Of a DNA stretch of 10,593 nt, positions 3,001 through 6,000 are shown piece after piece. The DNA is from a virus (Duplodnaviria; Heunggongvirae; Uroviricota; Caudoviricetes). The DNA lies in IMG/VR virus record IMGVR_UViG_2541047438_000018, positions 1-10,593 of that record; one strand, written 5' to 3'. Position numbers: made by a program. The stretch's first letter is position 1; each line of letters begins with the position of its first letter.

Positions 3001-6000
3001 TGATGCATTTTATTCGATTCACCAATCAGTGGAAAGGTGAGCATCTTGAAGAAGGGAAAAAATTACTTAAGTCAGCTCAGTCACATGAAGCTCAATCTTT
3101 ATTTGAAATTACCCCACAATCAACTCCAGAAGATAAAAAAAATAACTGGTCCAACCCTAATAGAAACAAAAATGAGTGGCGATATACACCTAAGCTGCCT
3201 ACCCCAGTAAAAAAAAGCTCTACTGTACGAATAATCTTCACCAGAGAGAAAGAAGATGTTAAAATTTTATCTAAATATTTCTTTGGACATGAAGATGCTA
3301 GCGCTTCTGATGTGGGGATGCAATGCTTTGATACGGTGATTGAAGAGGTGAAGTGATGTCTGGACAATACATTCCCTATCACTTAAGGCATAATAAGTCT
3401 ATTGATAGAGAGATTTTTCTCGAAAGCCTAAACCTCTTAAGCAAAAGACTAAATATTCAAGAATATACATATATAGGTTTTGGTGGTCCGATGCTTGAAG
3501 ATTTTAGAATCATGCATAATCGTATCGCTCTTTCTGATATGATTTCTCTCGAAGAACAAGAGTCTACTCACATCAGACAAAAATATAATTTGCCTTATAA
3601 TTGTATTGATTGTAAGCTAATATCAGCTCATGACTTTATTCTTGATTATAGTTTTTCTAAACCATCAATAACATGGTTAGACTATGCCTCCCCGAAAAAA
3701 ATACAAACGGATCTAGATGATATACACTTACTAAGTACTAAAGTAAGCTCTTTTGATATTTTGAAGGTCACCTTCCCCATAAATCCTAGTTCTTATTACC
3801 AACGTAGAGTTGGAGAAAGTTTAGATATTTTTAAAGAAGCTTTTATTAATTCATTAAAATCATTGCTTGGGAAAAAGTATCTTGATTTTAATCTTCAGAT
3901 ATCAAATGCAGATCTTTCAGATCGTAAGATTAAAGCTCTTTTAATACGAATTATTACAAACGCTTTTAGATCAGCAATAGAACGTGGTCTTTCAGGACGT
4001 AAGGATAAGATTCAGTATTACCCATTATCCTTAAATCAATATAATGATGGCAGTCATACCATGTTGACAATATCAGGTTTTTTCTCCTCAGAACAAGAAT
4101 ATATAGAGTTATCTAAGGCATGCGACCTTTCTAACTGGCAATTTTATTCAACAAATTGGGAAGACGTGCAAGAAATAGCAATACCAACACTAACAATTAA
4201 AGAAAAGATAAATTTAGATAGTAAACTGCCTGATAAAGAAGCATATCAGGCAGCCGCTGAAGAGTTCTCTTTAAACGAAAATGAACGGGATAACTATTAT
4301 AAATACTATAGGTTATACCCTAACTTCCAAAGAATTATGGTTTAAATATTCGGGCTGTACTCTTTTATTTAATAAATTGTACAGCCCCTTTAATATATAT
4401 TCAGCAACTATTGGTGACACGCTATTTCCTATTTGTCTGAAACTATGCCATTTAGTTACATGAAAGCGAAACCAATCAGGGAAGCCTTGTAATCTAGCAG
4501 CTTCTCTTGGTGTAATCACTCTTGGATGATAAGGGTGGATCGGCCTGACGGCTTGAAAGCTTCCTTTATCTCTAGCGGTTCCCGCCCTTAAAGTCGGGCA
4601 AAAACCATTTGGATCTAATCTTGTAGATCTTGAAATTTTATCAGTTTCCCCAAAAGATAAGGAAGCATAACGCTCTTGGACGATTTTGCTATGTAATGTT
4701 CCGGTACATCCAGATATGATATTATTTTTTAACTTAGCGATCGATTCTGTATCACCAACATTCCGAGGGATCTGCCCCCATAATTTTTCATAAAATCCCC
4801 CTTTTCGATCTTTTTTAATTGTTCGCCAACTCTCAGAGTCTGATTGCCAATTGGCATCGATAATATCTGGTAATCCATACAAAGCATCTTTTACAGTAAC
4901 CGGATCAATCATTTTAGGCATAAATACTTCATCTGAAATATCAAGCTTCAATGATTTTTTTACACCGATAAAAAAATATCTAGTTCGAATAGTTGGAGCA
5001 CCATAATCAGATGCTTTTACCTTGATGGGATCAAGAATATCATAATCACCGCTAACCAAATTAAATGCTTTATTTCTAATGCCAGAATATTTCTCTTGCA
5101 TAATACCTGGAACATTTTCTGCCAAAAAGAATAATGGCTGTAATTCTGATACTAAACGGTAGAAATGCATGTAAAGCTGATTCCTGCTATCATCAGGATT
5201 CCCCTTGCCTATTGAACTAAATCCTTGGCACGGAGGACCGCCAATAATACCATCTATGGGCATATCGTTTTTAAAAAAACCCTTAATTATTTCTGCATTT
5301 AGTAAAGAAACATCTTCTTGGACGTGCAAACTTCTTGGAAAATTAATTGCGTGAGTATTAATAGCATGTTGATCAATTTCAACTGCCATTTTAACATCAA
5401 ATCCAGCACGTGCAGCACCAAGACTTAGACCTCCAACGCCAGAAAACAAATCTATTACATTCATATAGTTGCAACGTCTCTTATTAGTTTCTATGTATTA
5501 TAACACAACTGTTCTTGATGTTTTAACCCCATAAGATAACCTCATAAAGGCTATCCCTTGAAAATACCGGATCGCATAAATTTAATCTTTCAAAACTACT
5601 TGTCTATTAATCGAGCAATTTAAGGTTGTTTTAGTCATGTCGATACCGACATAGTTAACTAAACCCATTTCATCGTCCAACAAATGGGGGTAATACACTT
5701 TGATTTATAGTCGGGTGGGTTTTTCTCTATCTGCCTTTGGTGTTCATGCCCAAGGCAGATAGCCTCAAGCACCCGCAGCAATTCTACTTAACTATCCTTT
5801 TCCCGCAAACCGTTTTTATCCCCAGCGGCAAATCGAATACACCACCAGCGCCACCGCCATCGCAATTCCTACCGTTGTGAATGCTTCAGGCCAGGTCATT
5901 GATTCACCTCCTGCGGCGGTTCTGGTAGCGACATCCAGTGGGTTGCTTGCCTAAGATCATTACCCGGACTAACTGCTATACCTCCGCGCCGGAACGTGCC

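Follow-up and report, generated by a model that had tools for sequence, protein, structure and literature searches.

Three genes in a bacteriophage genome look like an uncharacterised restriction–modification (RM)-like phage-defence module without a recognisable nuclease. They lie in IMG/VR virus record IMGVR_UViG_2541047438_000018, of which positions 1 to 10,593 were analysed; this whole stretch of 10,593 nucleotides (nt) is called the window here. The gene under study encodes a protein of 329 amino acids (aa), hereafter the partner, and is preceded by the gene of a MORC-like GHKL ATPase and followed by that of a C5 cytosine DNA methylase. With a probability of roughly 0.55, the partner and the ATPase would form an obligate complex and, together with the methylase, a mobile methylation-based self/non-self module for nuclease-free restriction. 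This reading is supported by the family of the partner, its predicted fold and its motifs of the S-adenosylmethionine (SAM) type, by strict linkage to and co-evolution with the ATPase, by frequent linkage to the methylase, by insertion of the pair into operons of DISARM (defence island system associated with restriction–modification), and by the lack of a recognisable nuclease. The module is widespread and methylation-linked and has been overlooked by defence catalogues; in Shiga-toxigenic Escherichia coli it would be carried as a moron in a lambdoid prophage.

Family and predicted fold of the partner

The partner gene is clearly real, because the protein matches Pfam PF20553 (Methyltransf_35) over its full length (300.4 bits against a gathering score of 27 bits, E = 2e-89, residues 1–328 against profile positions 1–308 of 309) and PHROG 19983 (E = 1.7e-154), and because a profile search of 1.84 billion representative proteins, in clusters at 50% identity, returned 2127 homologous clusters at E ≤ 1e-3 (1088 at E ≤ 1e-30). 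All of the 35 aligned homologues match PF20553. When fusion proteins were sought among the best 150 representatives, none was found, all being stand-alone proteins of about 330 aa. The open reading frame (ORF) of the initial annotation is thus upheld by the ORF call, Pfam and PHROG. The ATPase stop codon TGA (3354–3356) and the partner ATG (3356–3358) have one base in common in the sequence TGATG, and a GAGGTG at 3344–3349 lies 6 nt ahead of this ATG. The ORF could also begin at an in-frame GTG at 3353, its earliest potential start codon; the ATG at 3356 is preferred because, in the 35-homologue alignment, an invariant M1 is followed by SGG.

The partner family is known but unstudied, and its predicted structure is a class I SAM-methyltransferase fold. 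An AlphaFold2 model built from the 35-sequence alignment (mean predicted local distance difference test, pLDDT, 88.6; predicted template modelling score, pTM, 0.88) contains the seven-stranded Rossmann-like sheet of class I methyltransferases with an antiparallel β6–β7 hairpin (β1, 38–42; β2, 61–66; β3, 84–88; β4, 104–109; β5, 135–141; β6–β7 hairpin, 220–244), to which a helical insert (about 156–212) and a C-terminal helical region (246–317) are added. Foldseek returned 297 matches to this model at E ≤ 1e-3, which are methyltransferases without exception, although the resemblance is limited to the core because the TM-scores are merely 0.3–0.45. The glycine-rich segment YTYIGFGGPMLEDF near the N-terminus, already noticed in the initial annotation, is present and coincides with strand β1 and the motif I loop of the methyltransferase fold (G41-F-G-G-P45 after β1), which overturns the earlier statement that the protein has no SAM-binding motif. 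Motif II is represented by the acidic E66 at the end of β2 and motif IV by D109-Y110 after β4, in the form D-Y-x-x-x. Conservation was read from an alignment of 147 family representatives, 26–89% identical to the query: G43 is kept in 94%, G44 in 90%, E66 in 97%, D109 in 100% and Y110 in 90%. Judged by their position relative to the strands, G43/G44, E66 and D109 would lie in the SAM pocket.

The family also has signatures of its own. At the N-terminus, an invariant Y8-x-x-R11-x-x-K14-x-x-x-R18 lies in a helix (written out as Y-H-L-R-x-N-K-x-x-x-R), and further signature residues are D49, R74-Q75-x-x-N78, T139, Y229-x-D231 and E283. The enterobacterial/E. coli subclade deviates at D119 (Q in 94%), P141 (N in 94%) and I142 (A in 92%), reading TFPINP where the family consensus is TLNANP, and its activity may differ from that of the rest of the family.

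At the sequence level, as far as profile comparisons reach, the PF20553 family is isolated. The partner shares with RlmI/RlmO, RsmD, Trm1 and RlmJ the seven-stranded Rossmann fold, the glycine loop after β1, the acidic residue at the end of β2 and the Asp after β4, whereas identity to them is at most 14%, and its D-Y motif IV, its own N-terminal motif, its large helical insert and its C-terminal extension set it apart from class I nucleic-acid methyltransferases. Kinship with RlmJ/RsmJ, suggested by a resemblance of the N-terminal motifs, was rejected on hhalign probabilities of 0.2% and 0.04%, respectively, against the E. coli proteins; the DPP(Y/F) motif IV of the RlmJ/RsmJ type is absent from the partner, which has D-Y. 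When the PDB was searched by sequence, both the protein and the 35-sequence profile as queries yielded spurious matches only (an HIV envelope peptide, E = 1; HMG-CoA synthase, E = 0.015).

No nuclease family was detected in the partner with Pfam, NCBIfam or PADLOC, nor in the 35 members scanned with Pfam at E ≤ 10, in agreement with the earlier observation that PD-(D/E)xK, HNH, GIY-YIG, PLD and Walker motifs are absent. The partner might still be a novel nuclease carrying the DNA cleavage of a restriction enzyme of which the ATPase is the motor, since cleavage, if any, needs some protein and neither of the two is a recognisable nuclease. Several acidic residues beyond the SAM pocket vary little or not at all (D49, D231 and E283, with D134 at 85%), and of the three proteins the partner evolves fastest (mean p-distance 0.66 versus 0.54 and 0.53 for the other two), as restriction endonucleases tend to be. 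This explanation is nevertheless very improbable in view of the confident class I methyltransferase model, of structural neighbours that are all methyltransferases, of the empty nuclease scans, and of DISARM contexts that already hold a dedicated nuclease, DrmC. Remote-homology and fold comparison, recommended in the initial annotation, thus yielded PF20553 and a methyltransferase fold but no nuclease, and a confident non-nuclease fold speaks against the cleavage effector proposed there. The partner would rather be a reader or catalytic partner of the ATPase than an endonuclease.

Pairing with a MORC-like ATPase

The ATPase retains the four GHKL ATP-binding motifs (D34xxxN38, D75-N-C-G-G, G106xxGxG111 and G164-T) and the basic residue of the S5 domain (the lysine in TTTK325RG), all of them invariant among aligned ATPase homologues. 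By motif spacing, the canonical catalytic Glu of GHKL motif I corresponds to an Asp, D34, which is likewise invariant (28/28 homologues). The C-terminal 100 residues are poorly conserved. The ATPase model is nearest to MORC3, SMCHD1 and MORC2, and no nuclease domain was detected in it with Pfam, NCBIfam, PADLOC or a fold search.

The pairing of the two proteins is almost without exception. It was followed through 80 loci, found by scanning one-genome-per-species contigs for two conserved partner peptides, which span Cyanobacteria, Alpha-, Beta-, Gamma- and Deltaproteobacteria, Firmicutes, Chloroflexota, Latescibacterota, Poribacteria, Verrucomicrobia, Acidobacteria, Myxococcota and others. A homologue of the window ATPase (31–47% identity) is encoded immediately upstream on the same strand in 79 of the 80, and in the remaining locus (L078) just the 3' end of the ATPase gene is visible at the contig edge; co-conservation with the ATPase, to which the initial annotation had tied its proposal, is thereby found. 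In the reverse approach, starting from ATPase homologues, the downstream gene is again PF20553. In 56 of 77 loci, the stop codon of the ATPase gene and the start codon of the partner gene overlap by 4 nt, and in 61 there is an overlap of some length, nearly all others being at most 11 nt apart, so that the translational coupling read earlier from TGATG and GAGGTG is borne out well beyond the window. Pairwise distances of the two proteins are correlated (r = 0.80), also when the methylase is controlled for (partial r = 0.76). Linkage, overlap and distance correlation together point to a stoichiometric ATPase–partner complex. One locus (L010, 6616–13709) holds two divergent ATPase–partner pairs in convergent arrangement, with one C5 methylase and further ORFs between them; the proteins of the second pair show just 23–33% identity to those of the window.

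Participation of GHKL paraMORC ATPases in RM with cytosine methylases has been proposed (Iyer, Abhiman and Aravind, 2008; PMC2292703), and in the systems of that paper the ATPase goes together with SF2 helicases and nucleases of the restriction-endonuclease-fold, HNH, PLD, TIR or Vsr types. The present module resembles those systems in that a GHKL + S5 ATPase with intact motifs is found near a cytosine DNA methylase and in that its occurrence is sporadic and laterally transferred; it differs from them in that a methyltransferase-fold protein is the only invariant partner and neither a helicase nor a nuclease is found. A second candidate defence system, MZA, also has a HATPase_c_3-type ATPase, MzaB, but the NCBIfam MzaB match is sub-threshold here, with 12 bits (E = 0.037) where the cut-off is 850, and PADLOC found no Mza protein. 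PADLOC recognises a lone Type II methylase in the window and leaves the ATPase–partner pair unrecognised, and in the literature searched no paper was found on this pair or on a nuclease-free methyltransferase-fold partner.

In BREX (bacteriophage exclusion) and Type III RM, a methyltransferase-fold subunit is required for both restriction and modification, and in BREX a nuclease is not evident. The present module is similar to these systems in bringing a methyltransferase-fold protein and an ATPase together in methylation-based discrimination, and to BREX also in having no evident nuclease. In contrast to them, it has no homologues of PglX, BrxC, Mod or Res (no PADLOC matches), and self-marking is apparently left to a separate C5 methylase.

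The C5 methylase and the proposed mechanism

The methylase is convergent with the partner gene, and the 3' ends of the two genes overlap by 33 nt. Its residues 1–367 closely match PDB 3G7U (E = 1.3e-254), the next-best PDB relative being M.HaeIII over the N-terminal 200 residues only. The literature searched, including methylome work on O157, gives no target site for it, and no endonuclease that would stand beside it in a Type II RM system is identifiable in the module. A gene homologous to the C5 methylase of the window adjoins the pair in 66 of the 76 loci with informative contigs (87%); these homologues are mostly 50–66% identical to that of the window, a second group being 36–47% identical. 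They are found either upstream within the operon or, like that of the window, downstream in convergent orientation.

Such linkage bears on the database name of the partner, 'putative O-methyltransferase' in Pfam and RefSeq. Taken literally, the partner would methylate a small molecule or a protein, would be unrelated to DNA, and would lie near a methylase incidentally; besides the name, the many natural-product methyltransferases among the Foldseek matches and the acidic isoelectric point (pI) of the partner agree with this. Such a function is hardly to be expected, as not one of the 35 members matches a curated O-methyltransferase family at E ≤ 10, and the same Pfam scan gave no recurrent weak matches to other methyltransferase families; moreover, a MORC-like DNA ATPase is linked in every informative locus, a DNA methylase is adjacent in most, and no biosynthetic gene cluster functionally tied to the pair was found in the loci examined, where a nonribosomal peptide synthetase gene adjoining the pair in one cyanobacterial locus (L007) is not kept in related loci. 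No support was found for the 'O-' in the name.

Among 5426 complete E. coli genomes, the pair is present in 173 and the methylase in 172. The carriers (about 3% of the complete genomes) have it in prophages and are mainly O157 and O111 Shiga-toxigenic strains. The sole discordant genome, that of O157:H7 F6294 (L082), has a deletion of about 2 kb corresponding to window positions ~3721–5757, by which the methylase and the partner codons above ~122 are gone and the ATPase is left intact. This single event fits the idea that the methylase is not losable while the partner works.

The contact between partner and ATPase is itself predicted, and beyond this complex we infer the following steps. The C5 methylase would mark host DNA as self. 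The methyltransferase-fold partner would bind SAM, probe or modify DNA, and thereby license the MORC-like ATPase to form an ATP-driven dimer that clamps incoming DNA lacking the mark. Such a clamp would block replication or expression without a dedicated nuclease or, alternatively, pass the DNA on to further effectors, for instance the DISARM proteins or the HEPN-fused GHKL paralogue of variant loci. In its strongest form, in which the pair is a widespread nuclease-free restriction machine whose partner reads the missing methyl mark and licenses a MORC-type clamp silencing unmarked DNA, the proposal is a tentative one and rather unlikely to hold in full.

The variant loci are of several kinds. 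In a Myxococcota metagenome-assembled genome (L053, 239–12323), a complete class 1 DISARM operon contains the same pair as an insertion, in the order DrmMI-DrmD-[ATPase-partner]-DrmA-DrmB-DrmC, and on a plasmid of Microvirga terrae (L084, 1–10981) it lies between an MmeI-like DrmMI and DrmA-DrmB. DISARM-linked pairs amount to 2 of ~84 loci only, and the E. coli window differs from them in lacking DrmA, DrmB, DrmC and DrmD and having the methylase only. In a four-gene variant of ~9 loci, a second, longer GHKL paralogue (~550–590 aa) adjoins the methylase. Among the eight paralogue C-termini scanned, one has the HEPN-type domain Hypoth_Ymh (PF09509) and three match the PD-Lambda-5_A C-terminus; an RNase-type effector is likely in this variant.

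These contexts help to weigh two further explanations. The module might be for modification only, with the partner as an active second nucleic-acid methyltransferase and the ATPase as its loader or processivity factor, shielding the mobile element from host restriction. This is conceivable but doubtful, as it leaves unexplained the strict need for a MORC-like ATPase, the insertion of the pair into complete DISARM operons and the addition of HEPN-type effectors; the scattered occurrence among phyla is what defence or selfish modules typically show, and in the sole E. coli genome that lacks the methylase the partner is lost as well, which, albeit from one event, fits dependence. Less probable still is a SAM sensor guarding methylation-based immunity, which would bind SAM without transfer and, upon SAM depletion or a methylation block, free or activate the ATPase. 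It would be in keeping with the conserved SAM-type motifs, with the attachment of the pair to three kinds of SAM-dependent self-marking, namely by at least two C5 methylase subfamilies and by DrmMI in DISARM, with the weak coupling to any single methylase lineage and with the HEPN-type abortive effectors added in some loci. The idea is purely inferential, however; it gives no role to Y8, R11, K14, R18, R74, Q75 and N78, which are invariant and outside the SAM pocket, and the three-gene module of E. coli is without a recognisable downstream effector.

Several observations weigh against nuclease-free restriction by an obligate ATPase–partner complex with a methylase. Co-evolution of the methylase with the pair is loose (r ~0.4) and more than one methylase subfamily is involved (36–66% identity), which is hard to square with a sequence-specific reader of one methylase; a mirror-tree test gave no support for specific partner–methylase matching, the coupling of the partner to the methylase being no greater than that seen for the ATPase (partial r = 0.11, p = 0.06). 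Partner and ATPase alike have a mildly acidic pI of 6.0, which is atypical for DNA binders, the E. coli subclade has its Pro at position 141 in place of the Asn of 94% of the family, and PADLOC has no model for either protein. A cyanobacterial clade (L002, L004, L005, L006, L007 and L008) has the pair with no DNA methylase within 5–8 kb. In the Nostocales, namely Scytonema and two Nostoc (L002, L004 and L008, ~6500–9000), the pair keeps a syntenic place between NADH dehydrogenase (Proton_antipo_M) genes, with 88–94% conservation, on a par with the flanking ndh genes. The pair thus has no strict need of a neighbouring methylase and is not obviously toxic alone; this case is the main evidence against a model in which it is toxic without the methylase, although a methylase elsewhere in those genomes is possible.

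Prophage setting and significance

A lambdoid/Rac-like prophage found in Shiga-toxigenic E. coli (O157:H7, O111 and related strains) matches the window with 100% identity. Exactly three genes, those of the GHKL ATPase, the partner and the convergent methylase, make up the content of a low-GC island (Table 1), which is flanked by a DUF1367 gene and a DUF551 gene of the prophage. A sigma-70-like site ~50 nt upstream of the ATPase ATG is a candidate promoter of the ATPase–partner operon; a promoter and terminator scan of the region gave no more sites than expected from shuffled sequence. An inverted repeat begins 7 nt past the partner stop codon, inside the 3'-terminal part of the convergent methylase ORF, and may act as a bidirectional terminator or antisense-control point. 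At the right edge of the island, positions 5717–5800 show 95% identity to a region of phage 933W / VT2-Sakai annotated as sokW antisense RNA; an Rfam scan of the whole window at gathering thresholds returned no RNA family. The DUF551 ORF (5896–6453, minus strand) encodes 185 aa in the window, while RefSeq annotates only its 3' part, as an 81-aa hypothetical protein, in PA20 and F6294. Outside E. coli, the filamentous Pseudomonas Pf phage PfAC20 (13.6 kb) carries ATPase, partner and C5 methylase at its left end (L083, 280–3711), a triad scored as an 'incomplete RM system', methylase only, in a 2025 survey of Pf phages (PMC11878078).

Table 1. Features of the module in the window and of the GHKL paralogue in variant loci
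Feature	Position	Strand	Basis
Low-GC island	~1515–5700		GC 31–38% versus ~50% in flanks; boundaries approximate
Sigma-70-like site, TTGACT-16 nt-TAAAAT	1885–1912	+	Consensus match only
MORC-like GHKL + S5 ATPase, 463 aa, Pfam HATPase_c_3	1965–3356	+	Pfam, motifs, model
Translational-coupling junction, GAGGTG Shine–Dalgarno then TGATG	3344–3358	+	Sequence
Partner, 329 aa, Pfam PF20553 Methyltransf_35	3356–4345	+	ORF call, Pfam, PHROG, model
C5 cytosine DNA methyltransferase, 383 aa	4313–5464	-	PF00145, 208 bits; PADLOC MTase_II, 2e-98
Inverted repeat	4352–4387		14-nt arms, 86% complementarity, 8-nt loop
Second GHKL paralogue (four-gene variant)	L013 9061–10824; L018 10385–12076; L022 4837–6477; L030 195–1892; similar loci		

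The partner family comprises more than 2000 clusters at 50% identity over many bacterial phyla and yet is absent from current defence-system catalogues. If the pair restricts without a nuclease, it would provide a new effector logic for methylation-based immunity and a tractable bacterial model of the coupling between MORC-type ATPases and DNA methylation; if it only modifies, a new ATPase-dependent methyltransferase would be defined. In either case, the name 'O-methyltransferase' should not be propagated. Should the partner indeed read a methyl mark and license a MORC clamp, the pair would be a plug-in module also serving DISARM, and a bacterial counterpart, perhaps an ancestor, of the link between MORC proteins and DNA methylation in eukaryotic silencing.

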